A DNA stretch of 64,000 nucleotides, taken from the NCBI GenBank assembly GCA_029260905.1, contig JAJDCH010000014.1:24129-88128 (forward strand), given 5' to 3'. The stretch comes from Candidatus Levyibacteriota bacterium (GTDB lineage Bacteria; Patescibacteriota; Microgenomatia; Levybacterales; UBA12049). Below, piece after piece: positions 15-44,912 of the stretch (position 1 is its first letter; the number at the start of each line of letters is the position of its first letter). The position numbers were made by a program, and so were the translations under genes. The notes under the pieces were generated by a model. It saw only the letters and a list, made by a program, of their open reading frames with translations. It was not told the origin of the DNA and did no database searches.

Positions 15-1307
15 GTGTTAATTTCACTTGCCGTCAAATTGATGGTGGTTATTTCTTATTTCAACAAAATAGTTGATAATAATATAGGATCTATTATTGG
101 GCTTTTCAAAAGTTACAAATTTGAGAAAAAGAATAACAAAAAAAAGCTGCACGTATTGTTTTTTAACTGGAGAGACACAAAGCATATTTATTCAGGAGGA
201 GCTGAGGTTTATATTCATGAAATTGCAAAAAGATTTGTAGGTGATGGAAATAGGGTTACTGTTTTTTGTGGAAACGATAATAATCAAAGAGCAGAAGAGG
301 TAATTAACGGGGTTGAGATTATGAGAAGAGGTGGAACTTTTAGTGTTTATGTATATGCACTTTTTTATTATCTTTTAAAATTTAGAGGTAAAGTAGATGT
401 TATAATTGATTGTGAAAATGGAATTCCATTTTTTACACCTCTTTTTGTAAAAGAGCCAGTTATTCTTCTTGTACACCATGTTCATCAAGAAATATTCAGA
501 GCATTTTTAAAATTTCCACTAAATTATATTGCAGAATTTTTGGAGGGAAATTTGATGCCATTGGTGTATAGCAAAAAAAAGGTTGTAACCGTCTCTCAAT
601 CATCAAGAGAGGATATTATATCGCTAGGATTTACTGATCCATCAAGAATTGAAATTATCCAAAATGGTGTTTCTGGAAATGTGAGTATTTTGCCAGCTGA
701 AAAAACGACATACCCCTCATTTATTTATTTGGGGAGATTAAAAGAATATAAGAGTGTTGATATTGCCATAAAAGCATTTTCAAAAATTCTTTTAAAACAT
801 AAAGATGCAAGATTATCAATAGTTGGCTGGGGAGAAACTTACCCAAAGCTAAAAAACTTAGTTAATAACCTTGGATTAACTGAAAGTATTAATTTTTATG
901 GAAAAGTTGATGAGGCTAAAAAGATTCAGCTTCTCTCATCGGCTTGGGCAATGATTCAGCCTTCATTATTTGAAGGTTGGGGTCTTACTGTAATAGAGGC
1001 AAATACATGTAAAACACCTGTTATTGCATCAAGGGTAAACGGTCTTGTTGATTCTGTTATTGATAAAAGTACAGGAATTTTGGTTGATGTCAAAGATGTT
1101 GATGGTTTTGCAAAAGCGATGTCAGAGATTATATCAGATCCTCAATATTTGCAGATACTCTCGAAAGAAGCAGAAATTTGGTCAAAGAATTTTAGCTGGG
1201 AAAGAAGCGTTCAGGAATTTTATCAAGTAATCGATAAAACAGTAAGTGAAAATAAATCCAGAGCTTCATTTGCCGGATTTACATTTTGGTCAGACTTGAA
1301 TAATTAA
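15..1307 (+). CDS. Glycosyltransferase family 4 (GT4, RfaB-like). The ORF runs to the window edge, so the true start may lie upstream, or internally near the KKKLHVLFFNWRD segment.
   Basis: The N-terminal GT-B motif HVLFFNWRD...GGAEVYIHEIAKRFV and the C-terminal EGWGLTVIEANTCKTPVIASRVNGLVDSV motif (the EX7E region) are both present. It is the first gene of a tightly packed plus-strand operon. Confidence 0.8.
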   Translation: MLISLAVKLMVVISYFNKIVDNNIGSIIGLFKSYKFEKKNNKKKLHVLFFNWRDTKHIYSGGAEVYIHEIAKRFVGDGNRVTVFCGNDNNQRAEEVINGVEIMRRGGTFSVYVYALFYYLLKFRGKVDVIIDCENGIPFFTPLFVKEPVILLVHHVHQEIFRAFLKFPLNYIAEFLEGNLMPLVYSKKKVVTVSQSSREDIISLGFTDPSRIEIIQNGVSGNVSILPAEKTTYPSFIYLGRLKEYKSVDIAIKAFSKILLKHKDARLSIVGWGETYPKLKNLVNNLGLTESINFYGKVDEAKKIQLLSSAWAMIQPSLFEGWGLTVIEANTCKTPVIASRVNGLVDSVIDKSTGILVDVKDVDGFAKAMSEIISDPQYLQILSKEAEIWSKNFSWERSVQEFYQVIDKTVSENKSRASFAGFTFWSDLNN

Positions 1308-1309
1308 TT

Positions 1310-2218
1310 ATGAAAAATAAAAAATTACTATCTGTTGGAATACCTGCATATAATGAATCAGGAAATATCAAAAAACTGATTAAATCAATATTGTCTCAGG
1401 CTCAAGACAATTTTAGACTAAAAGAAATTATTGTTGTGTCTGATGGAAGTACAGACAGTACTTATGAAAAAGCAAAAAAATATAATAGTTCAAAGCTACG
1501 TGTTGTAAAAAATAAAAAAAGAATGGGAAAATCTTTTTGTCTTAAGGAGATTATCAAAAAAAACAAAAGTGACATTCTTATTCTGATTGATGCGGATGTT
1601 TATATAGATAATTCATTTTTATTTTCATCAATCGTGAATAACTGTAATTTCAAAAAAGCTGGAATTGCAGCAGTTAACGCATCGCCGATTGATGGAAAGA
1701 CATATTTTGAAAAAATTCTTCAATCAGGTGTTGTTGCAATGAAGCAAATATCAAAATTGTGGTTGAAGTCTCACAATTATTTAGCATTTAGAGGTAGTTT
1801 GTTAGCTTTGGATCGCAGATTTTCAAAAAAGTCACAAATAGACGAAAACCTGGTAAATAATGATTCATTTTTTTACTTTAAAGCAATTGAGCTTGGTTAC
1901 TCCCCTATTTTTTTTGAAAACCTTTTTGTTTATTATAAATTACCATCAAATTTCACAGACCATAAAAAACAATCTCTTAGACATTCTTTTGCAAAAAATG
2001 AGTTGAGGATATATCTTAATAAAGACTTAAGCAAGAAACTTAAAATACCATTTCAAATATATTTTTTTGTAACACTTTCAAATATTGCTAAAAATTTTAT
2101 TTATTTTTTCCCTTATTTAATTATTAGTTTTTTAATAAAATTTGGCAAAAAAGAAAAAGTAAAAAATAAATGGATGGTTGCTGAGTCAACCAAGAAAGGT
2201 GTTTATGTCAAAAAATAA
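1310..2218 (+). CDS. Glycosyltransferase family 2 (GT-A fold) with C-terminal transmembrane helices
   Basis: The N-terminus LSVGIPAYNESGNIKKLI...VVSDGSTDST...DADV matches the GT2 DXD-type signature. It starts 3 nt after the upstream gene. Confidence 0.8.
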   Translation: MKNKKLLSVGIPAYNESGNIKKLIKSILSQAQDNFRLKEIIVVSDGSTDSTYEKAKKYNSSKLRVVKNKKRMGKSFCLKEIIKKNKSDILILIDADVYIDNSFLFSSIVNNCNFKKAGIAAVNASPIDGKTYFEKILQSGVVAMKQISKLWLKSHNYLAFRGSLLALDRRFSKKSQIDENLVNNDSFFYFKAIELGYSPIFFENLFVYYKLPSNFTDHKKQSLRHSFAKNELRIYLNKDLSKKLKIPFQIYFFVTLSNIAKNFIYFFPYLIISFLIKFGKKEKVKNKWMVAESTKKGVYVKK

Positions 2219-3215
2219 ATATTCAGATCTAAAAAAAATAAATTTTTTAAAAATAATTAAAAATCAAAAAAAAATCAAGAATTTAAAATGTTTAATTTTT
2301 GGTAATTTTGGCGCTGGCAATATGGGAGATGAAGCAATTCTTGCTGGAGAATTAAATCAATTAAGAAAAAATAAAATTAGTAATATTTTTGTAGTTGGAA
2401 AAAATACAAGATTGATTAAAAAAATCCACAAGGTAAATGCAATTAATCTTTATAAATTGGATAAAATACTTAGAGCACTTTTAAGTTCAGATTTAATAAT
2501 ATTTGGTGGAGGTGGGATAATCAATAAATCTGATATTAAAGGATTTATTTATCAAATATACATTTTAACTATTTTTTTGTTTATTCCATCTTTATTTGAA
2601 AAAAGAATTTATCTAATAGGACTTGGCATATATAAAAATGCTAATAAATTAATTATTGGTTATTTTGTTTCTCTTTTAAAGAAAGTAGAATTTATTTCAG
2701 TAAGAGACAGGGATTCAAAGGTTTTACTTGAAGAAAAAGGAGTGAGTAGTAGTGTTTTTATGGACAATAGTTTTTTGATGGATTTGCTATCAAAAAAAGC
2801 TGTGTTAAAAAATGATTTTTTTTCAAAAAAATATGACAAAAATAAAAAAAATATTGGAGTTGCGCTTGTTGATCCAAAAGACAAAGAGCTTGAAAAAAAG
2901 ATTCTGTCTGAAATAAGCAAACTTGTTTTATCTAAAAAAGATACGGTTTTTTGGTTTTATTATTCATATGTAAATGATAAAAAATTTGTAGATAAAATAA
3001 AAATTAGTATTAGCAAAAAATTTAATGATAAATTTGTTTATTTTGATATTCCAGTAGATTTTGGTCCCAAAATGTTTTTCTCCTCATTTTGCCTAATGGA
3101 TTATTTCCTAGCAAGCAGATTTCATGCTATGGTATTTGCATACCGTCAAAAAATAAAGTTTAGTCCTTTCCCTTATGATCTGAAATGTAGCCAATTCTTA
3201 AATTCAATAAAATAA
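2205..3215 (+). CDS. Polysaccharide pyruvyl transferase family protein (CsaB/WcaK-like)
   Basis: The motif FGNFGAGNMGDEAILAGEL near the N-terminus is typical of the PS_pyruv_trans family. The ATG at 2205 is preferred over the TTG at 2178 that the ORF track used. Confidence 0.55.
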   Translation: MSKNKYSDLKKINFLKIIKNQKKIKNLKCLIFGNFGAGNMGDEAILAGELNQLRKNKISNIFVVGKNTRLIKKIHKVNAINLYKLDKILRALLSSDLIIFGGGGIINKSDIKGFIYQIYILTIFLFIPSLFEKRIYLIGLGIYKNANKLIIGYFVSLLKKVEFISVRDRDSKVLLEEKGVSSSVFMDNSFLMDLLSKKAVLKNDFFSKKYDKNKKNIGVALVDPKDKELEKKILSEISKLVLSKKDTVFWFYYSYVNDKKFVDKIKISISKKFNDKFVYFDIPVDFGPKMFFSSFCLMDYFLASRFHAMVFAYRQKIKFSPFPYDLKCSQFLNSIK

Positions 3216-3219: not shown

Positions 3220-6200
3220 ATGAAACTTACAAATCTGTTTAATAAAATAACTTTTTTTAAAAACCCAAATTTTTTACTTGCATTTTTTTGCTTTATAATT
3301 CTTGGATTTGTTTTAAGAGGAATTCCTGGAAATCCTACCGCAAAGGATTTGAGTTCTGATGTATGGGTAGATGAGAAGGGGCCACTTGAACTTTCTCCTG
3401 AAAAAGGAAGATACGCTCTTACCTATTCACTAGTTGAAAATAAGTCGATTTATTTTTCAAAGGAATTAGCTCGTTTTTCTGCACCAGATGTAGGATATAT
3501 AAATAATAGATATGTATCTCTTTTTGCTCCAAGCCTCTCAGCTATTGCCATCCCTGGATATATTTTAGGAAAATTTTTTGGATCAGCACAACTTGGTACA
3601 TATCTTACTGTTACTATTTTTGCAGTTCTTAATGCACTGCTGATTCGTTTGATTGCGATAAGAATAGGTGTGGGTAAAAAAGCTGCAATTATTTCATCGT
3701 TTGCTTTTATTTTTGCATCGCCTGCTTTTTCGTATGCAGTCAGTTTTTATCAACATCATTTAAGTACTTTTTTAATTCTATTAAGCATTTATATATTAAC
3801 CTGTTCTAAATCTGTCAGATCACTAGCTGCTATATGGTTTTTGTTTGCATTTGCCGTAACTGTTGATTATCCAAATTTTTTCATGATGCTTCCAATCGCG
3901 CTTACAGCGTTTTTTAGATCTATTAATGTAAGAAACAAATTAGATCAAATAAGCTTACAAGTAAATTATAAAAAACTGTTAACATTTATTGTCGCTTTTG
4001 TTCCATTAATATCTCTTTTATTATTCAATCAATTTTCAAACGGCAATCCTTTTCTTTTATCAGGAGGTGTTGAGAGAGCAATAGGGGTTGAAAAAGATGG
4101 AACACCAAAGCTTGAAGGGGATGTAATACTTGAGAGACTGGATTTAAAACCAGGTGAGGCTTTGCCAGAAAAAACCATACTTGGATTTTTTCAGAACAGG
4201 AATATGTTAAATGGAATTTATATACAGTTATTTAGTCTTGATAGAGGATTTATTGTTTATGCACCAGTTATGCTTTTTGGAATTCTGGGTCTTATATATG
4301 CTTTAAGAAAAAAAATCAGCAATAGTGAACTTTTACTTTCAATTGTTGGATTCAATCTTATTTTATATTCAATGTGGAGTGATCCAGCAGGCGGTTGGGC
4401 TTTTGGAACGCGTTATCTTATTCCATCTTTCGCAATTCTTTCGATATTCATTGGTTTTGCGCTTCGTATTATTAGAAAAAATATTGTTCTCTTACTTATA
4501 TTTATGAGTCTTTTTTCGTATTCAATTGGAGTTAATACAATTGGTGCAGTCACTTCCAATAGAAATCCGCCAAGAGTTGAGATAAATGATTTGGAATCGA
4601 AAACAAAAAAAGTAGAAAAATACACATTCATGAGAAATTTTGAAAAGCTTAACGACGGAAACGTTAAGTCATATTTCTATCAAACAAATGCAAAAGCTAT
4701 TATCTCAGCAAAAACTTATTATTTAATAATCTTACTGATTCTTTTATCTTCAACTTGTTTTATTTTGTATCAGTTTCAAAGAAAAGATGATGAGATATCT
4801 GAAGTTAAAAATAATGAGTCAGAATCGCTTACGAATTATTCGGAAATTGATATTTCTCAAAAATTTGTTCAAAAAGTAAAAAATTTCTTTCACAAAAGAA
4901 CGATCAAGGTAATTGTTGTAAGTTTTTCGACTGTTTCTATTGTTGCTTTTATCATTTATTATTTGAATGGTCTTGGTCTTGCATACAATGATGCAAGATC
5001 ACATCTAGACATTGGGCGACGCGTGGTAGAGAATTTGCAGCCAGGATTTGCTCAGCTTGGGTCAGTCTGGTTGCCGCTTCCCCATCTTCTTATGACTGTT
5101 ACGATCTGGAATGACTTTATGTGGCATTCTGGATTGTCTGGGGCAATACAGTCTATGGTTTCATATGTAGCATGTAATGTAATGATTTATCTATTTCTTA
5201 AAAAACTTAATGTCTCTATGTTTGGTCGAGTAATAGGAGTTTTGATTTTTGCATTTAATTTAAATGTTTTGTATATGCAATCAACTGCCATGACTGAGCT
5301 TTTACTGCTTGCTACACTTCTGGCTGGCACATATCAGCTTTTGTTGTGGTTTGAGTCAGATGAGGTATGGGATTTGATAAAGTCTGCATTTTTTGTCATG
5401 CTTGCAACACTTATCCGTTATGAAGGCTGGTTTTTGCTTCTTTTTTCAGCTATTTTAATTTTTCTGAAAACACTTAAAAAATCTAGTTATAAAAGAGCTG
5501 AAGGAATGTTTCTTCTTTATTCAAGTTTTGCAGGACTTGGTGTTGTCCTCTGGGTGTTGTGGAACACAATGATTTTTAAAGACCCTCTGTATTTCATATT
5601 CGGACCTTATTCTGCGTCTGCGCAGCAGGAGCTTTTGGAAGAAGCAGGAGTACTAGCAACTAAGCACGATTTGTTTTTTTCATTAAAAACATATTATTTT
5701 GCGCTTGTTTATAATACCGGAATGTTTCAAGTTATCCTAGGAGTTGTAGGTGCGCTTTTCCTTTTCTTTGATAAAAGAATATCTAAGAATCTAAAAATGG
5801 CATCTACTGCTCTTTTTGCGCCTTTTATTTTTAACGTGTTAGCTTTGTATCTAGGTCATTCTGTACTATTTGTACAAGGCTTATCAGGCACCTCATGGTT
5901 TAATGTCAGATATGGCTTGATGATGGCACCTGCTATTGCTATATTTATTGGATTTTTTATGGATAGAGTTAAATCAGTAAGACTGACTATTATTGGTATG
6001 TTGCTTTTTGTAACATTTTTTACATTTGTAAATCATGATGCTGTGACAATTGATGATGCGGTAGTTGGAGCAAGTGGGAAAAACGTTAAAGAAGTTAGTG
6101 GGTATTTAGAAGAAAATGCATTGCAAGAGCCTCATTTTGTACTTATATCAGCAGCAAGTCATGATGCAATTATTTTTTCATCAGGTCTCCCAATGAAGCG

Positions 6201-6441
6201 ATTTATTCATGAAGGAACAGGTTTGTATTGGGATTTAGCAACAGCACATCCTGAAAAATGGGCACGCTGGATCATTCTTCGAACTTATGATCAAGGAGAT
6301 CAAACCTACAGAATACTACAATACAGCACATCTTTTAAGGAAAATTATACATTAGTACATAAATTTCCATTTGCCGATATATATGAATTAAAACCTGAAT
6401 TCATATCTGCTCTTGAGACAAATGCAAGCGCTTTTGAATAA
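3220..6441 (+). CDS. Large polytopic membrane protein that looks like two tandem GT-C-type (PMT/ArnT-like) glycosyltransferase modules fused into one 1073-aa protein
   Basis: The hydrophobic periodicity suggests many TM helices. The first half carries an extracytoplasmic loop (YSLVENKSIYFSKELARFSAPDVGYINNRYVSLFAPS) that resembles PMT_2/ArnT. The second half (from about residue 560, AYNDARSHLDIGRRVVENLQPGFAQLGSVWLPLPH) starts a second GT-C-like module. The modules are separated by a K/E-rich linker. Confidence 0.55.
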   Translation: MKLTNLFNKITFFKNPNFLLAFFCFIILGFVLRGIPGNPTAKDLSSDVWVDEKGPLELSPEKGRYALTYSLVENKSIYFSKELARFSAPDVGYINNRYVSLFAPSLSAIAIPGYILGKFFGSAQLGTYLTVTIFAVLNALLIRLIAIRIGVGKKAAIISSFAFIFASPAFSYAVSFYQHHLSTFLILLSIYILTCSKSVRSLAAIWFLFAFAVTVDYPNFFMMLPIALTAFFRSINVRNKLDQISLQVNYKKLLTFIVAFVPLISLLLFNQFSNGNPFLLSGGVERAIGVEKDGTPKLEGDVILERLDLKPGEALPEKTILGFFQNRNMLNGIYIQLFSLDRGFIVYAPVMLFGILGLIYALRKKISNSELLLSIVGFNLILYSMWSDPAGGWAFGTRYLIPSFAILSIFIGFALRIIRKNIVLLLIFMSLFSYSIGVNTIGAVTSNRNPPRVEINDLESKTKKVEKYTFMRNFEKLNDGNVKSYFYQTNAKAIISAKTYYLIILLILLSSTCFILYQFQRKDDEISEVKNNESESLTNYSEIDISQKFVQKVKNFFHKRTIKVIVVSFSTVSIVAFIIYYLNGLGLAYNDARSHLDIGRRVVENLQPGFAQLGSVWLPLPHLLMTVTIWNDFMWHSGLSGAIQSMVSYVACNVMIYLFLKKLNVSMFGRVIGVLIFAFNLNVLYMQSTAMTELLLLATLLAGTYQLLLWFESDEVWDLIKSAFFVMLATLIRYEGWFLLLFSAILIFLKTLKKSSYKRAEGMFLLYSSFAGLGVVLWVLWNTMIFKDPLYFIFGPYSASAQQELLEEAGVLATKHDLFFSLKTYYFALVYNTGMFQVILGVVGALFLFFDKRISKNLKMASTALFAPFIFNVLALYLGHSVLFVQGLSGTSWFNVRYGLMMAPAIAIFIGFFMDRVKSVRLTIIGMLLFVTFFTFVNHDAVTIDDAVVGASGKNVKEVSGYLEENALQEPHFVLISAASHDAIIFSSGLPMKRFIHEGTGLYWDLATAHPEKWARWIILRTYDQGDQTYRILQYSTSFKENYTLVHKFPFADIYELKPEFISALETNASAFE

Positions 6442-6442
6442 T

Positions 6443-7411
6443 ATGAAAAAAAAATTAAAAATTATAATTTTTTTACTTTTAATGATAATTTTTTTGTCAG
6501 GTTTTTATATATTTATAAAAAATAAGATAGATCAAAACTGGCAAGTAAAATCAATTGATACTATGAAATATTCAAGAGATGAGGCTCAAAGAGGAATAAA
6601 TGATAAGAATTATGTTTCATCAATTGACAGACAGATGGCCGAGATTGCTGGAGCTGGGGCAAATTATGTTGCAATAGGAACACCATATGATAAAGAATTT
6701 TTGCCGGTATTGAGGTTGTGGGTAAAAGCAGCAAGAAGACGTGAGCTAAAAGTTTTCTTTAGGGGAAATTTTTCGGGTTGGGAAGAGTGGTTTGGGTATG
6801 AAAAAATTGGAGAAGAAGAACATCTGAGGTTAACAGAAGAGTTTATTCTTGAAAATTCTGATCTTTTTGAAGATGGAGATATTTTCTCATCTTGTCCAGA
6901 ATGTGAAAATGGTCCAAGATTCTCATATCATGACAAAATAGCTGTTTCTAAGCACAGGAGCTTTATCCTACAGGAATACCAATTAACCAAAAAAGCTTTT
7001 GAGGAAATAGAAAAAGATGTTGATTCAAATTATTTTTCTATGAATATGGATGTTGCAAAACTTATTATGGATCGTGAAACTACTGAAAAACTTGATGGAA
7101 TTGTGACTGTTGATCACTATGTAAAAGATACTGAGGTGCTTGCTAGAGACGTAGAAGCACTTGCTAACCAAACCGGTGGAATGATAGTTCTGGGTGAGTT
7201 TGGCGCTCCAATTCCTGATATCCATGGAGAAATGAACAATCAGCAACAAAAAGATTGGATTGAGGCTGTTTTAACAGATTTATCTAATCGTTCTTATATA
7301 AAGGGAGTTAATTATTGGGTGGGTGTGGGGGGCTCTACAGCTCTCTGGAGTGACAGTGGGGATCCCAAACCAGCAGTTGAGGTAATTAGACAATTTTATC
7401 AAAAGAAATAA
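6443..7411 (+). CDS. Membrane-anchored hypothetical protein, possibly a TIM-barrel glycoside hydrolase (GEFG nucleophile-like motif)
   Basis: An N-terminal TM anchor is followed by the motifs VAIGTPYDKEF, FFRGNFSGWEEWFGY and VLGEFGAPIP, which are reminiscent of GH5-type catalytic motifs. The ATG at 6443 lies 2 nt after the upstream stop and is last in the glycan operon. Confidence 0.35.
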   Translation: MKKKLKIIIFLLLMIIFLSGFYIFIKNKIDQNWQVKSIDTMKYSRDEAQRGINDKNYVSSIDRQMAEIAGAGANYVAIGTPYDKEFLPVLRLWVKAARRRELKVFFRGNFSGWEEWFGYEKIGEEEHLRLTEEFILENSDLFEDGDIFSSCPECENGPRFSYHDKIAVSKHRSFILQEYQLTKKAFEEIEKDVDSNYFSMNMDVAKLIMDRETTEKLDGIVTVDHYVKDTEVLARDVEALANQTGGMIVLGEFGAPIPDIHGEMNNQQQKDWIEAVLTDLSNRSYIKGVNYWVGVGGSTALWSDSGDPKPAVEVIRQFYQKK

Positions 7412-7428: not shown

Positions 7429-7457
7429 TTGACAAACTAATTGATCTATGATATAAA
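7429..7457 (+). promoter_or_regulatory. Sigma70-like promoter: TTGACA, 17-nt spacer, TATAAA
   Basis: TTGACA lies at 7429-7434 and TATAAA at 7452-7457 with a 17-nt spacer, 29 nt upstream of the ATG at 7486. Confidence 0.4.
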
Positions 7458-7485
7458 GTGATTCATACTTTCTATAAGTCTTAAT

Positions 7486-8010
7486 ATGAATAAAAATAAA
7501 AGTATTTTAATGGTAACAGCATTCGCCCTTTCGCTTGGGTTTGTTTCACCAGTTGAAGCAGCAGGCGGTGCTCCTGATTTTGGGACATGTGTTGCTCCAA
7601 AAGGAGAAGTAATAGCTAGCTACGCAAATGGGGTTCATGGAATTCCAGGAAAAAGAGAAACCTTTAAAGGTTCAGACACTGTATATAAAATATCTCAAGA
7701 CGTAGTCTTGCAGTGTTTTTGTCCAGAAAACGGCAAAGGAATCCAAACTAATTGGCTTAGAGCAAAAGATCTTTCCAAAACAGAAATAGCAAAGCTCAGA
7801 AAACAAGGATGGGTCTATATCGCAACAGGTTCAGTCTGGGGACTTGATGATGTTGCATATCTTGCAAAAAATGTTGAATATACATGTAAAGCTGGAGTAG
7901 CCACAAAAGGTCTTGCAAATACAGGTAATCTTTTTCTTCTCAATACCCTTCTTTTAGGCGGCATGACAACAGCTGCATTAGCATTTCTTTTAAAGAAATT
8001 CAGAAAATAA
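7486..8010 (+). CDS. Secreted Cys-containing protein with a C-terminal cell-wall sorting signal (LANTG, a hydrophobic stretch and a KKFRK tail); a predicted sortase substrate
   Basis: It has a signal peptide (MNKNKSILMVTAFALSLGFVSPVEA). The C-terminus reads LANTGNLFLLNTLLLGGMTTAALAFLLKKFRK, which is the classic three-part sorting signal with an LAXTG-type motif. A sortase gene follows immediately. Confidence 0.65.
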   Translation: MNKNKSILMVTAFALSLGFVSPVEAAGGAPDFGTCVAPKGEVIASYANGVHGIPGKRETFKGSDTVYKISQDVVLQCFCPENGKGIQTNWLRAKDLSKTEIAKLRKQGWVYIATGSVWGLDDVAYLAKNVEYTCKAGVATKGLANTGNLFLLNTLLLGGMTTAALAFLLKKFRK

Positions 8011-8022
8011 TCGAATTTCATT

Positions 8023-8592
8023 ATGAAGAATGCATTCAACATTTTTCTAATTACTTTATCTATCGTTTTTTTCACACTTGCAGGTTTCCAGGTTTATCTT
8101 CGACTCAATCCCTCACGTACTCTAGCTGTTTCTACTGTTGGTTTTGAAAAATATCGTTATCCTCAGGTATTTGATCAAGTTGATGAAATAGTCGTTCTAA
8201 GCAACCCAATAAGAATTCAAATCGAAGATTTAGGAATTAACTTACCTATTTTTCAATCAAGAATTAATAACGATGTTTGGGAAACAACGGATAAGGGCGC
8301 ATCTTATCTCGTAGAAACGCCAGTTCCTGGAGACAAAGGCAATAGTGTTATCTATGGACATAACTGGAATGGTTTGTTTGCAAATCTAGTAAATACAAAG
8401 TCAGGACAAATTGTGAAAGTGGAGTATGAAGATGGAAGCACTAAGGAATTTGTAGTTGATCATACATCAATTGTAGGTCCTGATAATTCAGAAATTTTAG
8501 CTTTTTCAGAAAAACCGATATTGACAATATATACATGTACTGGTTTTCTTGATTCTCAAAGATTTGTTGTTGTTGCAACACTTAAACAATAA
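8023..8592 (+). CDS. Sortase (transpeptidase, C60 family), probably LAXTG-specific (class E-like)
   Basis: An N-terminal TM anchor is present. The catalytic residues are His in IYGHNWNG, Cys in the TLXTC motif LTIYTCTGF, and Arg in RFVVVATL. It lies 13 nt downstream of the substrate gene. Confidence 0.85.
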   Translation: MKNAFNIFLITLSIVFFTLAGFQVYLRLNPSRTLAVSTVGFEKYRYPQVFDQVDEIVVLSNPIRIQIEDLGINLPIFQSRINNDVWETTDKGASYLVETPVPGDKGNSVIYGHNWNGLFANLVNTKSGQIVKVEYEDGSTKEFVVDHTSIVGPDNSEILAFSEKPILTIYTCTGFLDSQRFVVVATLKQ

Positions 8593-8626
8593 AACCCCAC
8601 TATAGCTTTTTGCTAGGCGGGGTTTT
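8591..8626. terminator. Bidirectional rho-independent terminator between convergent genes
   Basis: The sequence AAAACCCCAC TATAGC TTTTT GCTAGG CGGGGTTTT forms an imperfect GC-closed hairpin flanked by an A-run and a T-run. It sits right after the sortase stop codon. Confidence 0.6.
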
Positions 8627-8767
8627 AAGTAAAACAAATATTGTTGTTTCATGATTATGATTAGGACAGAAAATCATAATCTAAAAAGTGTGTTCTTAGA
8701 TTAAGGGATATGCTTATTCTTGTCAATTAGTGCAAAGACAATTAAACTATATCAAAAGGTAGAATTA

Positions 8768-9619
8768 TTATTTTTTGTTAAAACTTAAAGATATTTTTGT
8801 TTTTAATCCAATGTGATCTGAGAGAAACCTTTTTTTGTTATTTCCAAGTATTTCTTTTTTGTTGAAAATCTCAATTGTATTTTGTATTTTTATTTTTCCA
8901 GTATTCATTCTTAAAAATATATAATCAATTCTTTTTACTTTTTTGTGTTTGGGTAAAAATGATTGGTGCTGTGTAGGGGTATGAAGTCGTTTAAATAAAT
9001 CCTCAAGCTTTGCATTTTTAATAAAATCCTTATAGATGAGTGAATCTTTTGCGGTATTAAAATCTCCTGCTGCTATTAGATCTCTTTTCTTTTTTGAATG
9101 ATTGTTTATTATTTCTGAAAGTTGCGCAAGTTGAGCGCTATTATACTTGCTAAAACGGTTTTTCATCGAGTAGTCATGGTCTAGATTTGGCGTGATGTGA
9201 GCGTTTAGTATATATACTGGGTAATTCTTCAATTTGCAAACAAGCGCTCCATTCCTAATTATATGAGCTATAAATGAAGTGTTGGTGAGACTTCCTCTAA
9301 TTTCAAAATCGATATATTCTGTTTTTTCAACTTTATGTTTGGAAAACATAACGAGTCCGCCTTTTGGCCCATAAAGATATTTTTTATAAATAACATAAGG
9401 ATATTTTGTAAGTTGTTTTCTTAAAATATTTAAAAAAGAGTATGTGTGAACCTCTTGAAGAAAAATTAAATCAACATCTTCTTTTTCAAGAATTTCAGCA
9501 ATTTTTTTTTGTCTTTTTATAAAATTTATAGAGTCCCAAAAGCCGTGAAGACTATCAAAACTAAATGCTCCCATGGTATTAAAACAAATAAGTGTTAGTT
9601 TAAGGGTTGTAAATTTCAT
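8768..9619 (-). CDS. Endonuclease/exonuclease/phosphatase (EEP) family protein
   Basis: The N-terminus has DLIFLQEVHTY, the catalytic Glu region. The C-terminus has FLSDHIGLK, the EEP SDH motif. Confidence 0.7.
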   Translation of the reverse strand: MKFTTLKLTLICFNTMGAFSFDSLHGFWDSINFIKRQKKIAEILEKEDVDLIFLQEVHTYSFLNILRKQLTKYPYVIYKKYLYGPKGGLVMFSKHKVEKTEYIDFEIRGSLTNTSFIAHIIRNGALVCKLKNYPVYILNAHITPNLDHDYSMKNRFSKYNSAQLAQLSEIINNHSKKKRDLIAAGDFNTAKDSLIYKDFIKNAKLEDLFKRLHTPTQHQSFLPKHKKVKRIDYIFLRMNTGKIKIQNTIEIFNKKEILGNNKKRFLSDHIGLKTKISLSFNKK

Positions 9620-9659
9620 CCAAACATTATACCATATTAGTCGTTATTTAAAGCTTTTT

Positions 9660-10634
9660 ATGCAGTTTAAAAAATTTATAAAATATATAAGTAAAATCAT
9701 TTTTTTCTCAGTTGTCTTTGCTTTTTTGGCTTGGCTCTTGATTGGTCGGAATATTGAAAATGGTTCACCACTTTCCCCTCTTCCAGACTTTTTAACACTA
9801 AGCAAGAATAAGCAAGTCAGATTTTTAGATTTGTGGTTTCCAGCTCTTGAAAAAAAAGATGTTGCAGGATTTGATACCTCATTCTTTACAGCGGAATCAG
9901 CAATTGTTTACGACCTGACAGATAATAAAACAATTTTTGAAAAAAATCCTACAAAAAAATTAGCCATGGCATCTATTACTAAAATAATGACTGCTATTGT
10001 AGCCATAGAAAATAAAAAAAACGATGATAAATACCTGGTGAAAAAAGAAAATCTGGTGGGAGAGAATGTAATGGGACTTGATATAGGAGAGGTGCTTTCT
10101 CTGGAAGATTTGCTTTATGGACTTATTCTTCCATCGGGAAATGATGCTGCTGAAGTTCTCGCGTCAAATTTTCCAACAGGAAGAAGAGGATTTATAAAAG
10201 CTATGAATGACAAAGCAAGATCAATGGGCCTTTTTAATACAGTATTTAGCAATCCGTCAGGACTCCAGGGTGATGGTCTTCAGCAGACAACTACTGAAGA
10301 TTTGGTGGTTATTACCAAATATGGACTTGAGAATCATCCGCTTTTTGCAGAAGTTGTTGCTACTCCAGAGCATCAAATTCCAAAAACATATGATCATAAG
10401 TCTTATTATTTATATAATGAAACAAATCTATTGACAACATATGAGGGTGTAAAAGGTGTAAAAACAGGTTATACACCTGAGGCAGGATTTTGTTTGGTTA
10501 CTTACATTGATTATGGTGGTCATGAACTAATAGCAGTGATTCTCAATAGTGAAAATAGAAGAGAGGAGATGATAGAACTGCTTGATTTTTCTTTAAATTC
10601 CCTTGGCATAGCTCCACCAAAGTACAGAGGATGA
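9660..10634 (+). CDS. D-alanyl-D-alanine carboxypeptidase (serine-type, S11/PBP5 family)
   Basis: All three PBP motifs are present: SxxK (ASITKIMT), SxN (LPSGND) and KTG (KTGYT). An N-terminal TM/signal segment is present. The ATG at 9660 avoids overlap with the convergent gene. Confidence 0.85.
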   Translation: MQFKKFIKYISKIIFFSVVFAFLAWLLIGRNIENGSPLSPLPDFLTLSKNKQVRFLDLWFPALEKKDVAGFDTSFFTAESAIVYDLTDNKTIFEKNPTKKLAMASITKIMTAIVAIENKKNDDKYLVKKENLVGENVMGLDIGEVLSLEDLLYGLILPSGNDAAEVLASNFPTGRRGFIKAMNDKARSMGLFNTVFSNPSGLQGDGLQQTTTEDLVVITKYGLENHPLFAEVVATPEHQIPKTYDHKSYYLYNETNLLTTYEGVKGVKTGYTPEAGFCLVTYIDYGGHELIAVILNSENRREEMIELLDFSLNSLGIAPPKYRG

Positions 10635-12602: not shown

Positions 12603-12654
12603 AGCTTGACTATATGAGAATTAGAAGCTTTTGTCAATTAGAAATGGGTTTGTA

Positions 12655-12728
12655 GTACGCCCAGAGGGATTCGAACCCCCGACCATGTCGTTAGAACCGA
12701 CGTGCTCTATCCAACTGAGCTATGGGCG
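12655..12728 (-). tRNA. tRNA-Arg (anticodon TCT). The call is tentative because of a C-A mismatch at 27-43 and G at position 32.
   Basis: The acceptor is gcgccca/tgggcgt with G1-U72. The D-arm is gctc-agttggata-gagc (cf. argU), the anticodon loop is gtTCTaa, and the T-loop is ttcgaat. Confidence 0.7.
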
Positions 12729-12816
12729 CATAAAGCTATTTTACCAATTACGCCTACAAGTTGCAATAAGATATCCTATAGTTGAAAATTTGATAAAATT
12801 TTGCTATACTTCAGGC

Positions 12817-13374
12817 ATGAAAGAAGTAAAGATATCTGCTATTGACTTACTGGCATATCCTGATTTTGAAGCAAGTGTGTTTGATAATGGAAAAAAACTT
12901 CATGCTAGGCAATTGGAATTAAGAAATGGTTGGGATCGAAGAATAGAAAATATTTCAAGGGAACCAGGGGTTATTTTGGTTTATTTTTCTATACTTGATA
13001 TCAACCAGATATCTAGTGGTTGGAAGAGCAGTGACTCATTGTTATCAGCTATTGAAAAAGAGGAGATTAAAAGACAACAAAAGTATAATAATCTCCTTAG
13101 AGAAAGGCTTCTTATTATTCCAAGAGATGTGCCCGTTACCAAAGATCTTCTTGGTAAAAAATTGAAGCAAAATGGGCTAATATTTAGCCCAGAAAATTCT
13201 AGGTTGACAGCTTATGGTGAATATACAGAAAATGGAGTAGTGGGCAGGAGAAATGATGTTCGAGTTGCTCTTGGGATATCTGGTATCCATATTGGAACAG
13301 ATTGTGATTTATCTTTATCTATTGAGCAGCAAAGACAGATAACACGTTGGAGAGCAAGAAATAGAGACGAGTAA
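12817..13374 (+). CDS. Hypothetical protein (185 aa), first gene of a three-gene operon
   Basis: The start is set at the first ATG (12817) downstream of the tRNA-Arg gene, because the annotated N-terminus from 12631 overlaps that tRNA. I recognise no domain. The gene is 3 nt upstream of the next gene. Confidence 0.45.
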   Translation: MKEVKISAIDLLAYPDFEASVFDNGKKLHARQLELRNGWDRRIENISREPGVILVYFSILDINQISSGWKSSDSLLSAIEKEEIKRQQKYNNLLRERLLIIPRDVPVTKDLLGKKLKQNGLIFSPENSRLTAYGEYTENGVVGRRNDVRVALGISGIHIGTDCDLSLSIEQQRQITRWRARNRDE

Positions 13375-16498: not shown

Positions 16499-16864
16499 AT
16501 GAACCCCCTTATTACTATAAAAGGAAATGTGATAGATGGCAAGAAGCGCGGCAAGGATTTTGGATTTCCAACTGCGAATTTAAAACCTGAAATAACTTTG
16601 CCTGAGGGTGTTTTCGTATCTGAGACTATTGTAGCTAAAAATGTATATAAGTCAGTTACTTTTATTGGAGCAGCAAGAACCTTTAATGAGTCAGATATTA
16701 TAGTTGAAACATATATTATTGATTTTAGTCAGGATATCTATGGTTTGGAAATCGAGGTTAATTTATTGAAAAAAATAAGAGATAATGTGAGGTTTAACAA
16801 CAAAGAAGATTTGATAGCGCAAATGAAAAAAGATGAGGCAGAAACAGTTAGGTTTTTTAATTAG
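16499..16864 (+). CDS. Stand-alone riboflavin kinase (RFK domain only, 121 aa)
   Basis: GKKRGKDFGFPTANL matches the RFK signature GxxxGRxLGFPTAN. No FAD-synthetase (FMN adenylyltransferase) domain is attached. Confidence 0.7.
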   Translation: MNPLITIKGNVIDGKKRGKDFGFPTANLKPEITLPEGVFVSETIVAKNVYKSVTFIGAARTFNESDIIVETYIIDFSQDIYGLEIEVNLLKKIRDNVRFNNKEDLIAQMKKDEAETVRFFN

Positions 16865-17930
16865 TATAACCCATGGTAAGTAGATCTCTGTCAATTTTTT
16901 TGTAAATAACATTTTTTAATTTTATAGCATCAGCTATTTTTTCGACACCTTTTCCTGAAATTGCAGAAACAGATTCTTTTCCACCAATCAGAATTGGCGA
17001 ATGAAAAATGTATACTTTGTCAATAAGTTTTTCATCAATAAAACTTCCAATTACTTCTCCCCCGCCCTCAACAAGAACGCTGAGAATATTTCTTTTTTTT
17101 AGTTCATTTAACAAAGTTCTAATAATTATTTTATCGCTTTTAAATTTGATAAAATCTATTCCTATTTTTATTAACGCCTTTTCATTTTTAGCATCTGCTT
17201 TATTTGTTGTGACAATAATTATATTTTTATCTCTTAAGACATCTGACTTAAGAGGAATTTTTAGAGTGGAATCAAGGATTATTCGAGTTGGGTTTTTTTT
17301 GTTTTTAGACTTTGTTCCAAGATTGGGATTATCTGCTAGAACTGTATTTATGCCAATTAAAATTGACTGATATTCTCCTCTAAGGCTTAAGGCAAATTTT
17401 CGGGATTTTTGATTGCTAATCCATTTAGAATCTTGCGTTTTTGTCGCGATTTTGCCATCAAGACTTGAAGCAAATTTGATAGCAACAAAAGGTCTTTCTT
17501 TTTCAAAAAAACTAAAAAAGGCTTCATTTAAAATCTTTGCTTCTTCTTCAAGAATGCCAATAGATGTAGTTATTCCTGCTTTTTTTAATTTTTCAATTCC
17601 CTCTCCAGATACTTTAGGATTTGGATCAAGCGTTGAGCATATAACTTTTTTGATGCCCGATCTTATTATTAAATCAACACAAGGTGGAGTTTTTCCAGAG
17701 TGACTACATGGTTCAAGATTTACATAAAGTGTTGACCCAGTTAATTTTTCCTTGCAATTTTTAATTGCTTCTACTTCTGCATGATATGAGCCAAATTTTT
17801 TATGAAAGCCATTGGAAATTATTTTGTCATTTTTAACAATAATAGCTCCAACCATTGGATTGGGATTGGTGTGACCGAGTGCTTTTTTTGCAAGTTTAAA
17901 AGTTTGATTTAGGTAAAATTGATCTGTCAT
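16857..17930 (-). CDS. ribD: Bifunctional diaminohydroxyphosphoribosylaminopyrimidine deaminase / 5-amino-6-(5-phosphoribosylamino)uracil reductase
   Basis: The CMP/dCMP deaminase zinc motifs HAEVEAI and LYVNLEPCSHSGKTPPC are present. A C-terminal RibD reductase domain follows. Confidence 0.9.
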   Translation of the reverse strand: MTDQFYLNQTFKLAKKALGHTNPNPMVGAIIVKNDKIISNGFHKKFGSYHAEVEAIKNCKEKLTGSTLYVNLEPCSHSGKTPPCVDLIIRSGIKKVICSTLDPNPKVSGEGIEKLKKAGITTSIGILEEEAKILNEAFFSFFEKERPFVAIKFASSLDGKIATKTQDSKWISNQKSRKFALSLRGEYQSILIGINTVLADNPNLGTKSKNKKNPTRIILDSTLKIPLKSDVLRDKNIIIVTTNKADAKNEKALIKIGIDFIKFKSDKIIIRTLLNELKKRNILSVLVEGGGEVIGSFIDEKLIDKVYIFHSPILIGGKESVSAISGKGVEKIADAIKLKNVIYKKIDRDLLTMGYTN

Positions 17931-18505
17931 TTTAGAAAATGTCCAAGCTTTTGTTTTTTAACTAGTAGATATTTTTGGTTTTGTTTGTTTGGTTTTACTT
18001 CAAGAGGGATTCTTTTTACAATCTCAACCCCATAAGTTGTTACTTGTTTTATTTTATCCGGATTATTTGTCAAAAGATTTATTTTTGCAATGTTTAGGTC
18101 TTTTAATATCTCAACTGCTATTTTGTAATCCCTGTCATCAATTGGAATGCCCAGCTCGTTTTGCGCATCAACAGTATCAAATCCTTTCTCCTGAAGCGCG
18201 TAGGCTTTTATTTTATTAAAAAGTCCAACACCTCGACCCTCCTGGTTGAGATATATAATGATACCTGATTTGTTTTTTTGAATGAGCTTCATGCTTTTAA
18301 TTAATTGTTCCTGGCAATCGCAACGTAGTGATGAAAATGTATCACCAGTCAGGCATTTTGAATGAATCCTTGTAAGGACGGGTTGTTCTTTTAAATCACC
18401 AACTGTCAGTAAAACATGTTCGAGATTGTCTGTTTGGGATTTGTAAATACTAATTTGAAAGTCTCCGTATTTTGTAGGAAGAAATGCTTGTATTGTGTTG
18501 GTCAT
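17927..18505 (-). CDS. ribA: GTP cyclohydrolase II (monofunctional; no DHBP synthase domain)
   Basis: The motifs RIHSKCLTGDTFSSLRCDCQEQ and YLNQEGRGVGL are present, and the protein is 192 aa. It overlaps ribD by 4 bp (ATGA). Confidence 0.9.
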   Translation of the reverse strand: MTNTIQAFLPTKYGDFQISIYKSQTDNLEHVLLTVGDLKEQPVLTRIHSKCLTGDTFSSLRCDCQEQLIKSMKLIQKNKSGIIIYLNQEGRGVGLFNKIKAYALQEKGFDTVDAQNELGIPIDDRDYKIAVEILKDLNIAKINLLTNNPDKIKQVTTYGVEIVKRIPLEVKPNKQNQKYLLVKKQKLGHFLK

Positions 18506-18507
18506 TA

Positions 18508-18975
18508 TTATAATTTTTTTGCTGTCTTAATAGTTTCAACAGCCGATCTTGCAACCTCTGCACCCTTCATAGTCAAGTGTTTTTTAAAGAATTTAATATC
18601 TGATGAATTGTTTTCATCAAATCTTTGTGGAGTAAGGACAGCAGAAAGAATGGGAGTATTTGTTTGAAGTGAAACCTCCATCATTCCATTTAGTACTGTT
18701 TGGGCTACAAATTCATGACGGTATATTCCACCATCAACAACAAGTCCAAAAGCAATCACTGCATCAAAATTATTCTTTTGAAGTATTAACTTAGATGTGA
18801 GTGGTATTTCAAGACTGCCTGGAACTTGAAATTGTTTAACATTTTTTTTAGTATCAATCCCAAGCATTGATAACTCAAGAGTACATGATTTTGTCATGGC
18901 GCTGACAAGATCCTGATGCCATTTAGCAGAAATAAATGCAATTTTATAATCTAATTTTTTATTATTATTTTTCAT
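18508..18975 (-). CDS. ribH: 6,7-dimethyl-8-ribityllumazine synthase
   Basis: The 155-aa size, the VPGSLEIP motif and the operon position support this call. Confidence 0.8.
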   Translation of the reverse strand: MKNNNKKLDYKIAFISAKWHQDLVSAMTKSCTLELSMLGIDTKKNVKQFQVPGSLEIPLTSKLILQKNNFDAVIAFGLVVDGGIYRHEFVAQTVLNGMMEVSLQTNTPILSAVLTPQRFDENNSSDIKFFKKHLTMKGAEVARSAVETIKTAKKL

Positions 18976-18980
18976 CTCTA

Positions 18981-19568
18981 TTAGTTATTTTTATTTAAAT
19001 TTTTTTCTATGTATTTACCAATTAGATCTGTTTCGATATTTATCATATCGCCAATTTTTATATTTCTTAACATCGTGTTTGCATAGGTGAATGGAATAAT
19101 TCCGACATTAAATGATTTTCTGTTAACACTGATAACAGTAAGAGAAATTCCATTTATAGTAATTGAACCCTTTTTAATAATTTGTTTGCTAAGCTCAATT
19201 GGATAAGAGATTGTTAGTATTTTGCTGTTTCCATTTTGTTCAATTTTTTTGATTATTCCTATGCCGTCAACATGCCCTTGAACAAGATGTCCGGATATGA
19301 AATCATTAAGCGTAAGAGGTAGTTCAAGATTTACAACATCATTTATTTTTAATGTTTTAAACATTGTTTTGGAAACAGTTTCTGGCATGATATCAATAGA
19401 GAAGCTTTGTTTTGTTGGTAAGTCTACAACTGTTAGGCAAGTACCATTTGCTGAAACACTCATGCCCTTTTCTAGTTTTTGATAGAAATCTTTTTTTGCT
19501 TTAAACACAAAAGTTGATTTCTTATTTTTAATTAACTTTCCCAAATGATTTATAATTCCTGTAAACAT
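18981..19568 (-). CDS. ribE: Riboflavin synthase alpha subunit
   Basis: It has the MFTGII N-terminus and the GHVDG motif (ISGHLVQGHVDGIG) of the internal lumazine-binding repeats. Confidence 0.9.
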   Translation of the reverse strand: MFTGIINHLGKLIKNKKSTFVFKAKKDFYQKLEKGMSVSANGTCLTVVDLPTKQSFSIDIMPETVSKTMFKTLKINDVVNLELPLTLNDFISGHLVQGHVDGIGIIKKIEQNGNSKILTISYPIELSKQIIKKGSITINGISLTVISVNRKSFNVGIIPFTYANTMLRNIKIGDMINIETDLIGKYIEKNLNKNN

Positions 19569-19573
19569 AGCAC

Positions 19574-19594
19574 AAAAAAACCCGCGTCAACGGG
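19574..19594 (-). terminator. Intrinsic terminator of the FMN riboswitch expression platform
   Basis: On the minus strand the sequence reads CCCGT-TGAC-GCGGG followed by TTTTTTT. It ends 5 nt before the ribE ATG. Confidence 0.5.
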
Positions 19595-19618
19595 GTGAAA
19601 CTCTGCCTAAGCAATTTG

Positions 19619-19744
19619 TCTTTCTTTTATCCCGACTGTACGGTCGCTATTGGATTTTCACCAATTCATGTCGCCTTAGACGACTCGTAGAGTTATCCCA
19701 TTGGGAATCACTACCGATTTGGACTTCCACCAAACCCCGAAAGA
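19619..19744 (-). promoter_or_regulatory. FMN riboswitch (RFN element) aptamer upstream of ribE-ribH-ribA-ribD
   Basis: The minus-strand read is TCTTTCGGGGTTTGGTGGAAGTCCAAATCGGTAGT...TTGGTGAAAATCCAATAGCGACCGTACAGTCGGGATAAAAGAAAGA. P1 is closed by TCTTTC/GAAAGA. The conserved GGUG-AAAUCC and GCGACCGUACAGUCGGGAU blocks match the RFN consensus. Confidence 0.85.
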
Positions 19745-19817
19745 ACAATATAATAATACTTAATCTGAAGCTATTTGTCAAATAAAAATCTATTTTGAAT
19801 TTAGTATAATTAAGAAA

Positions 19818-24804: not shown

Positions 24805-24833
24805 TTGACATTAATTTTGGTTGATTTTATAAT
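24805..24833 (+). promoter_or_regulatory. Consensus sigma70 promoter TTGACA-17-TATAAT, 10 nt upstream of an ATG (leaderless or near-leaderless)
   Basis: TTGACA lies at 24805-24810 and TATAAT at 24828-24833. The ATG is at 24844 with no Shine-Dalgarno sequence. Confidence 0.55.
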
Positions 24834-24843
24834 TAATTTAAAA

Positions 24844-25329
24844 ATGATAACTGAAAAAGGTACTTCGCTTGTTAAAATAGGATTTTGGGAAAAACAGGTT
24901 CTTTTTGACGCGAGAGTATTTTCAATGCCTCTTAGAGCTAGATGGCAAATTAATGAAAGGTTGGGCTTGGAAAGTCCAACAGATAGAAAATTAGCTGCAT
25001 ATTGTTTCAGAGAATATCAACTTAGACAGAATAGCTTATCGATGGGTAGAAATTTATCTACGATAAGAATGTCTAGCTTTAAAAATTTAGTTGATGAAAA
25101 AGAAAGAATAGAAAATCAGATTATCGAATTGGCTCATATCACGGATTTATTTGTTCAGAATAATTATTCTTCCCAATCCAACAGGCCAAATCTGATAAGG
25201 CAGGCAATCAGTAATTTAGTTACTTCTGGTACTCAACGGGATGAGCAGGAAAGAGTTGCTTTTAGGCTTGAGAGATCGATGCTCTCCACATGGGGTACTG
25301 AATGGAAAACTAGACTAGCTGAAGCTTAA
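24844..25329 (+). CDS. Hypothetical protein (161 aa) upstream of dinB
   Basis: The start is reassigned to 24844 so that the consensus promoter is not inside the CDS. No domain was recognised. Confidence 0.45.
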   Translation: MITEKGTSLVKIGFWEKQVLFDARVFSMPLRARWQINERLGLESPTDRKLAAYCFREYQLRQNSLSMGRNLSTIRMSSFKNLVDEKERIENQIIELAHITDLFVQNNYSSQSNRPNLIRQAISNLVTSGTQRDEQERVAFRLERSMLSTWGTEWKTRLAEA

Positions 25330-32236: not shown

Positions 32237-32254
32237 AGTTTTAAATAAGTTTTG

Positions 32255-32326
32255 TGAGCCGGGAGGGATTTGAACCCACAACCAATACCTTAAGAGGGTA
32301 CTGCTCTACCGTTGAGCTACCGGCCC
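32255..32326 (-). tRNA. tRNA-Lys (anticodon CTT)
   Basis: The acceptor is gggccgg/ccggctc. The anticodon stem-loop is gtacc-ctCTTaa-ggtat. The T-loop is ttcaaat. The acceptor is shared with tRNA-Lys(TTT) at 62496. Confidence 0.85.
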
Positions 32327-44833: not shown

Positions 44834-44897
44834 ATCAAACAGCTTTAATTATATAGCTATTAAGGCTGGTATGCAAGTTTATAAAAAAAATGCCATA

Positions 44898-44906
44898 TGC
44901 TATAAT
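44898..44906 (+). promoter_or_regulatory. Extended -10 element TGcTATAAT, 6 nt upstream of the aroG-type ATG (predicted leaderless)
   Basis: TGCTATAAT lies at 44898-44906 and the ATG at 44913. There is no Shine-Dalgarno sequence. Confidence 0.45.
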
Positions 44907-44912
44907 CATCAG

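Follow-up and report, generated by a model that had tools for sequence, protein, structure and literature searches.

Several sortases are known that serve a single adjacent target, among them the class D sortase SrtC of Bacillus anthracis, which acts on BasH and BasI, and SrtB of Staphylococcus aureus, which acts on IsdC; the class GN 'marine' sortase (TIGR03784) is also accompanied by an adjacent target protein. Bacteria of the Candidate Phyla Radiation (CPR), or Patescibacteria, account for much of bacterial diversity, although few of them have been cultivated, and the ways in which they build their surface and attach to hosts are poorly known. Sortases of class E with LAXTG substrates have been described in Streptomyces coelicolor, where SrtE1 and SrtE2 act on chaplins (PMC5148588). 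A sortase family of CPR bacteria, termed fam000526 by Meheust et al. (2019), was reported to be near-ubiquitous in Microgenomates and was taken as evidence of a Gram-positive-like envelope (PMC6744442). Here we describe a gene pair in a 64-kb stretch of contig JAJDCH010000014.1 of a Candidatus Levyibacteriota bacterium (hereafter the window; 34.5% G+C). The upstream gene encodes a small secreted protein with a C-terminal LANTG sorting signal (the cargo), and the downstream gene encodes a sortase. It is likely, as judged from sequence comparisons, that the two form a bicistronic and probably strongly expressed operon, by which one dedicated cargo would be displayed covalently through the action of the sortase.

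Cargo protein and its sorting signal

The N-terminus of the cargo is a typical Sec signal peptide of approximately 25 residues (nucleotides (nt) 7486-7560), in which MNKNK and a hydrophobic core precede a predicted cleavage site between VEA and A; the site, at the junction of MNKNKSILMVTAFALSLGFVSPVEA and AG, was judged by eye. The head that follows comprises roughly 105 amino acids (aa; residues ~30-135, nt 7573-7890) and contains Cys35, Cys77, Cys79, and Cys134. The initial annotation, which had assigned about 120 aa to this Cys-containing domain, was correct as to the signal peptide, the domain itself, LANTG, the hydrophobic stretch, and KKFRK. The LANTG motif (residues 143-147) is preceded by Gly and followed by 22 mostly hydrophobic residues (148-169) and KKFRK, and the hydrophobic stretch was modelled by AlphaFold2 (AF2) as a helix (149-173). 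The cargo thus has the layout of LPXTG-type signals, in which a pentapeptide is followed by a hydrophobic segment and, at the very C-terminus, by a positively charged tail.

Conservation of the C-terminal motif in homologs had been chosen beforehand as the point at which the proposal could fail, and the motif was found to be conserved. In 47 aligned cargo homologs, residues L143, A144, T146, and G147 do not vary, and the linker ahead of them is hypervariable in its length as well as in its composition. Among 305 unique C-terminal tails of the family, collected from database proteins and from the loci described below, 250 contain a sorting signal. Its first position is occupied by L in 216 and by F in 28 of these tails, and its second by A (237), P (8), or G (5); Thr is present in all 250 and Gly in 245, and the extended consensus is VLG-LAxTG-N/D. 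The motif is followed by a median of 28 residues to the C-terminus, with a median of three basic residues among the last eight. The 55 tails without the signal are mostly truncated fragments, near-variants such as LADSG, or tails with another anchor. The distance between Cys134 and Leu143, which we regard as the tether of the head, is 8 residues in the window cargo, and reaches about 60 Gly/Ser-rich residues or contains an fn3 spacer in homologs; this would place the head of the window cargo at the wall or inside it.

Two features of the family tails were observed in addition. In 20 of 207 family members, a degenerate second motif context is present in the linker, 10-35 residues upstream of the signal (for example, QVLGASTS...VLGLANTG). 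In the sub-family formed by P0344, P0353, P0362, P0364, P0367, and L061 2269-3405 (P and L numbers are our labels of proteins and loci), a Cys-rich multi-pass membrane tail with recurring ...CxxCxWWP... and ...PCKYFWA... motifs replaces the sorting signal. It follows an fn3 domain, except in P0344, in which no fn3 was detectable. This tail is a predicted sortase-independent alternative anchor for the same head.

Cargo family and its head domain

The homologs of the cargo (n = 113; E-values down to 1e-44) are 35-57% identical to it over the aligned part, and all names given to them in the sources are Microgenomates, Gottesmanbacteria, Woesebacteria, or Patescibacteria. A search with the hidden Markov model (HMM) of the cargo among 1.84 billion cluster representatives yielded 374 clusters, defined at 50% identity, with E<=1e-3, including 191 with E<=1e-30. 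By these sequence criteria, the cargo family is real, moderately sized, and lineage-restricted.

Invariant positions of the head in the 47 aligned members are F32, C35, G49, G55, G62, D64, Q76, C77, C79, G85, I86, Q87, N89, W90, W109, G115, L120, and C134, the four Cys columns being 100% conserved. The AF2 model of the head has a predicted local distance difference test (pLDDT) score of 93-97 over residues 31-130 and is beta-rich, with one helix (98-106). Cys77 and Cys79 lie in one strand of the model, Cys35 precedes the first strand, and Cys134 directly follows the last one. Since the invariant Cys residues are four in number, also per repeat in the tandem-repeat protein P0234, the simplest reading is that two disulfides would staple both termini of the head to its central strand.

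No match to the head of the window protein was found in Pfam or NCBIfam, and none of the 113 homologs has a Pfam domain on the head; a Pfam search with the 47 aligned members at E<=1 gave scattered noise only. The best E-value of the family profile against PDB sequences was 0.2, and Foldseek comparisons of the head model gave best E-values of 0.44 against PDB (TM-score <0.31) and 0.16 against BFVD, with TM-scores <0.33 across both libraries. The head is probably a ligand-binding, possibly a glycan-binding, module, although this is the weakest part of our explanation. It is suggested by the invariably N-terminal (distal) position of the head in all architectures of the family, by the richness of its invariant residues in Trp, Gln, and Asn (GIQTNW, W109, W118), and by those relatives in which, as in adhesins, heads are repeated in tandem or raised on stalks similar to fn3 or SpaA. 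For instance, P0234 consists of three tandem heads, an SpaA_2 (SpaA-type prealbumin) domain, and LPRTG, and in other relatives the head is followed by fn3 and (F/L)AxTG, or by fn3 and the Cys-rich multi-pass membrane tail.

The invariant QCFC and GIQTNW sequences recall the Cys and Gln motifs of thioester adhesins of Gram-positive bacteria. We rejected the assignment of the head as a thioester domain, as the head is half that size, has no fold match in PDB, and contains an even number of Cys residues (four per repeat, including the repeats of P0234).

Sortase

The product of the downstream gene matches Pfam PF04203 with E=7.2e-24 (84.4 bits; cut-off 26.6) and the general NCBIfam sortase model TIGR01076 with 41.3 bits (cut-off 39.35). 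It comprises an N-terminal membrane helix (residues ~2-28), a flexible, low-confidence linker (~29-60), and a catalytic beta-barrel (62-187), with nothing after the barrel in the AF2 model (pLDDT 87). The predicted catalytic residues, His113 (VIYGHNW; nt 8359-8361), Cys172 (TIYTCTGF; nt 8536-8538), and Arg180 (SQRFVV; nt 8560-8562), align residue for residue with those of B. anthracis SrtC (PDB 2kw8). In a collection of 5.8 billion proteins, 338 homologs were found at E<=1e-5; the best 120 of them, which are those listed, are all of about 155-205 aa and are named mostly Patescibacteria, Roizmanbacteria, and Woesebacteria. H113, C172, and R180 are invariant in 33 aligned homologs, in agreement with the annotation of the protein as a sortase with a His/Cys/Arg triad, and the family consensus around the cysteine is TLYTC. 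Lack of a conserved triad, the other point at which the proposal could have failed, was thus not observed. Other invariant positions in this set are the family-specific W86, S94, L96, P102-G103, and G106-N107, and the block T168-x-Y170-T171-C172-x-G174-F175-x-D177. Foldseek found 115 matches of the sortase model in PDB at E<=1e-3, and the best 50, which are those listed, are all sortases. Among them, with E-values of ~1e-10, are sortases of class C (2xwg), Corynebacterium diphtheriae SrtA, streptococcal class A, and Clostridium perfringens class D (4d70), where the class labels of entries that bear none in the Foldseek output or in the profile matches are those we presume. By sequence and predicted structure, the window enzyme is a bona fide sortase with predicted transpeptidase activity.

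The assignment of this enzyme to a sortase class is less straightforward. Class was judged by the NCBIfam class models, a profile search against PDB, and the ranking of Foldseek matches as proxies. The class models, whose cut-offs are 140-166 bits, gave the window enzyme 47.4 (F), 40.4 (D), 39.2 (SrtD), 38 (C), 36.8 (GN), and 25.4 bits (E), and all 33 family members were below the class cut-offs, the best E-value for any class model being 1.8e-15. Class D is the best-scoring model across the 33 members, and the class B model matches only three of them. Classes D, F, GN, and B were thus rejected by their cut-offs. Class C was rejected by its score with NF033745 (cut-off 160 bits), by the lack of a C-terminal helix, and by the lack of a conserved Lys in the cargo. 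Class E was rejected despite its LAxTG substrates: among the seven sortase models matching the window enzyme, that of class E (NF033747; cut-off also 160 bits) gives the lowest score, its best E-value among the 33 members is 3.3e-10, and class E structures are absent from the best 50 Foldseek matches and from the profile matches in PDB at E<=1e-3. By these proxies, the enzyme belongs to a putative clade that is specific to CPR bacteria and falls into none of the curated classes A-F and GN, and the pairing of LAxTG with such a clade implies a use of this motif that would be independent of class E. In the beta3/beta4 loop of class E SrtE1, the conserved Tyr229 is a specificity residue (PMC5148588). 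The 33 homologs contain a near-invariant Tyr95 in 'GASYL' ahead of the His strand, which is a possible counterpart of Tyr229.

Pairing of the cargo and sortase genes in relatives

Loci were pooled from four look-ups, a genome scan (5 loci), and a degenerate-DNA scan of metagenome contigs for G-x-GIQTNW, and their open reading frames (ORFs) were filtered with HMMs built from the cargo and sortase alignments. Among the 66 ORFs that match the cargo HMM, 50 are informative, i.e., followed by at least 450 nt, and 42 of these have a sortase gene directly downstream on the same strand, the stop-to-stop frames of the paired genes ranging from an 84-nt overlap to 127 nt apart. In each of the four divergent cargo look-ups, a Pfam-annotated sortase is encoded directly downstream, and the other neighbors differ (transposases and a two-component system at one locus, glycosyltransferases at another). 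The eight exceptions comprise four canonical LAxTG proteins (L007, L017, L111, and L126) and four divergent ones, of which one has LPRTG and three are without a clear signal.

When sortase homologs served as the starting point, all four that were arbitrarily chosen on long contigs had a same-strand LAxTG gene directly upstream, and three of these genes encode members of the cargo family. In the remaining case (L133), the protein encoded upstream of the sortase gene (3240-3959, +) has LASTG and a different, Pro/Thr-rich head, and a member of the head family is encoded just downstream of the sortase gene on the opposite strand (4569-5645, -), which indicates that the sortase slot can host other cargos. 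In one 378-aa protein (P0285), a complete cargo, with head, LASTG, and membrane helix, is joined to a complete sortase; this is either a natural fusion or possibly a result of read-through or a frameshift in the assembly.

A census of sorting signals in the window and in the fetched flanks of relatives revealed no other ORF with such a signal in the window, and one in the flanks. The latter (L056) encodes an fn3-only protein with LATTG and lies beside a head-domain gene; the presence of LAxTG on this unrelated protein indicates that it is the general motif of the lineage. As both proteins of the pair belong to conserved and co-occurring families, their association is far beyond chance. The initial annotation of the pair as a self-contained, dedicated module is supported by the adjacency found in both directions, by P0285, and by the census of the window.

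Organization of the locus

The features of the locus and its surroundings are collected in the table.

Table. Features of the cargo-sortase locus and of its genomic surroundings (positions in the window)
Feature	Position	Strand	Details
Glycosyltransferases and polysaccharide pyruvyl transferase	15-3215		Envelope-related neighbors
Multi-pass membrane protein, 1073 aa	3220-6441	+	No Pfam match; two genes upstream of cargo
Weak glycosyl-hydrolase-like protein	6413-7411		
Promoter candidate, sigma-70-like	7429..7457	+	TTGACA 7429-7434, 17-nt spacer, TATAAA 7452-7457
Cargo ORF, 174 aa	7486-8010	+	ORF list
Sorting signal, tripartite	7912..8007	+	LANTG 7912-7926, hydrophobic helix 7927-7992, KKFRK 7993-8007
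Sortase ORF, 189 aa	8023-8592	+	PF04203
Intrinsic-terminator-like hairpin	8590..8627	.	AAAACCCC...GGGGTTTT, between convergent genes
Next gene, endonuclease/exonuclease/phosphatase family	8768-9619	-	Convergent with sortase gene
D-Ala-D-Ala carboxypeptidase	9573-10634		Two genes from the pair
VKOR-family oxidoreductase	31102-31680	-	PF07884, E=2.9e-44

The promoter candidate, which ends 28 nt ahead of the cargo ATG, lies where it had been proposed. The final base of its -10 hexamer is A and not the consensus T, because of which a consensus promoter scanner skipped the site. Sequences of the form TTGACA-N17-TATAA occur twice in the window, whereas 0.11 would be expected by chance. The gap between the cargo and sortase genes is 12 nt (8011-8022), and not 13 nt as first stated. 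The hairpin downstream of the sortase gene was not called by the terminator scanner; in the folding of region 8585-8640, its free energy is -18.9 kcal/mol (z=-3.8), and none of 200 shuffled sequences was as stable. The strong hairpin that had been annotated as a bidirectional terminator is therefore present, and bidirectional termination, though unproven, is plausible from its location between convergent genes.

The other exact TTGACA-N17-TATAA sequence of the window (24805-24832, +) falls on the TTG listed as the start codon of ORF 24805-25329; this gene therefore probably begins at a more downstream position.

Proposed course of surface display

Both genes are presumably co-transcribed, as they are separated by a short gap and share one promoter-like site and one terminator hairpin. 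The cargo would be exported by Sec, and its signal peptide would be removed near Ala25. The head would fold outside the cell, where two disulfides may staple it, possibly with VKOR or Dsb-type help, while the C-terminal helix and KKFRK would hold the precursor in the membrane. The membrane-anchored sortase would then cleave LANTG between Thr146 and Gly147 by means of Cys172, with the participation of His113 and Arg180, to form a thioacyl intermediate on Cys172. By analogy with established sortase chemistry, the cargo would be transferred to an amine nucleophile, most likely lipid II, and a covalent bond would finally link the head to the wall through a tether that, with 8 residues, is unusually short.

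Genomic context

The VKOR-family gene to which the cysteines of the cargo had been linked is present as annotated, at a distance of 23 kb from the pair, outside the operon and physically unlinked to it. No thioredoxin or DsbA domain was detected in the product of the neighboring ORF 31685-32281. Oxidoreductases of VKOR and MdbA-like types are reported to be enriched CPR-wide (PMC6744442). Given this enrichment and the four invariant Cys residues, an accessory role of VKOR in oxidative folding of the head is plausible, and we infer it weakly.

The neighboring genes listed in the table between 15 and 7411, like the D-Ala-D-Ala carboxypeptidase gene, are envelope-related, and this block is syntenic in one relative (L002), in which the cargo is 47% identical and the 1073-aa membrane protein has a counterpart of 1070 aa. 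The nearby D-Ala-D-Ala carboxypeptidase gene implies the presence of a peptidoglycan wall.

Several other features were noted in the window. A flavin mononucleotide (FMN) riboswitch (RF00050, 84.9 bits, 19615-19748) is located upstream of a run of minus-strand genes (16857-19748) that ends with a RibD-type deaminase/reductase gene (16857-17930), and the whole looks like a riboswitch-controlled riboflavin operon. Region 44826-53806 contains genes of DAHP synthase, dihydroxy-acid dehydratase (IlvD), an acetolactate-synthase-type thiamine pyrophosphate enzyme, and a LeuA-type isopropylmalate/homocitrate synthase, which exceeds the amino acid biosynthesis usually ascribed to genomes of CPR bacteria or Microgenomates. 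A tRNA identified with Rfam (12656-12729, -) falls within the 5' part of a 247-aa ORF listed with a TTG start (12631-13374, +); this start is probably mis-set, or the 5' end of the ORF is spurious. The gene at 33070-34239 (+) specifies a CAP-domain (cysteine-rich secretory) protein, and that at 40141-42024 (+) a transglutaminase-like protein.

Alternative explanations of the pair

Dedicated covalent display has to be weighed against three other explanations of the locus. The proximity of LANTG and a sortase gene could be coincidental, the cargo being merely a protein anchored in the membrane by its C-terminus. The Pfam and NCBIfam anchor models do not recognize the C-terminus of the cargo, and some family members have the multi-pass membrane tail and no motif. 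Nevertheless, L, A, T, and G are invariant within a hypervariable linker, the motif is found at a fixed distance from the C-terminus (median 28 residues) together with a basic tail, the genes are adjacent at 42 of 50 loci, and a fusion protein exists. Coincidence, to which we give hardly any credence, is effectively refuted by these conservation data. It is also very improbable that the cargo is a pilin polymerized into a covalent fiber by a class C-like pilus sortase, even though a small secreted protein adjoins its own sortase and class C sortases rank among the top matches by sequence as well as by structure. No Lys column of the head is conserved above 72%, and hence there is no pilin-motif nucleophile; the enzyme is anchored only N-terminally, ends after the barrel, and lacks a DP[FWY] lid motif in its N-terminal region; structures of classes A and D match it equally to those of class C, whose HMM gives 38 bits vs. 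160 required; the head model has no Foldseek match in PDB, pilins included; and neither a second (tip or base) pilin nor a second sortase is encoded nearby.

A more serious alternative, which we nonetheless regard as unlikely, is that the sortase processes the cargo without attaching it to peptidoglycan, either by releasing the head hydrolytically or by ligating it to another acceptor, for instance a lipid, a glycopolymer, or a surface-layer protein. The enzyme lies outside every characterized sortase class, and so short a tether is poorly suited to display beyond a thick wall. Against this alternative, a carboxypeptidase that processes peptidoglycan is encoded at a distance of two genes from the pair, and one is likewise encoded nearby in two relatives; moreover, to our knowledge, all characterized sortases that act on a tripartite signal resolve the acyl-enzyme with an amine, which belongs either to lipid II or to a pilin.

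Sortase-dependent display of a dedicated cargo is in our view the best account of the locus, and several points weigh against it. Neither Pfam Gram_pos_anchor PF00746 nor the NCBIfam LPXTG models match the window cargo, and PF00746 weakly matches two of the 47 homologs (best E=0.0038). As the anchor models are silent, the call of the sorting signal rests on motif architecture and conservation, although a miss by PF00746 is expected for a variant motif with Ala in place of Pro. The four canonical LAxTG proteins encoded without an adjacent sortase indicate that adjacency is not obligatory. A tether of 8 residues is short for an adhesin that reaches outward, and ligand binding by the head finds no homology or fold support in Pfam, in PDB, or in the Foldseek comparisons with PDB and BFVD.

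Comparison with known sortase systems

The previously described fam000526 is almost certainly the same enzyme family as the window sortase; the parts of that account used here mention neither a substrate nor a sorting motif, and no pairing of genes (PMC6744442). Our full-text literature searches found no description of a CPR sortase substrate, of the cargo family, or of LAxTG use in CPR bacteria. The Pam pilus of a recent preprint is a different, donor-strand-exchange system. The candidate cargo family and the LAxTG motif make surface display in Microgenomates testable, where earlier a sortase was known but no cargo was named. A compact sortase (~130 catalytic residues) with a preference for LAxTG could also serve as an orthogonal tool for protein ligation.

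A more far-reaching reading of these data is possible but doubtful. The enzyme may represent a new CPR-specific sortase class with an independent LAxTG specificity, and its partner, with an undescribed, doubly disulfide-stapled fold, may be the principal cargo of Microgenomates and mediate attachment to a host cell or to the surface of a substrate. If true, this would explain the near-universal presence of a sortase in Microgenomates with their reduced genomes.

The pair resembles class E systems in the Ala-for-Pro LAxTG motif, in the N-terminal anchoring of the enzyme, and in the presumed wall anchoring of small surface proteins. It differs in its host, CPR vs. Actinobacteria, and in the enzyme, which is much shorter and devoid of the long cytoplasmic N-terminal segment. 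With the single-target systems it shares the location of one sortase gene next to its cargo gene, and 2kw8, the structure of B. anthracis SrtC, is the best PDB sequence match of the window sortase. In contrast to the motifs of those systems (LPNTA, NPQTN, and LP[QK]T[AS]T), the motif here is LAxTG, the cargo head is unrelated and unannotated, and the enzyme scores far below the cut-offs of classes D, GN, and B. A sortase with an adjacent cargo that carries a variant motif is thus of a well-known kind, with a textbook mechanism, and the value of its finding is incremental rather than conceptual. What appears to be new is a cargo family that is conserved and whose head lacks a recognizable fold, a lineage-wide LAxTG motif (extended VLGLAxTGN), and the pairing of this motif with a putative sortase clade that, as judged by class models, profile search, and Foldseek ranking, lies outside classes A-F and GN.

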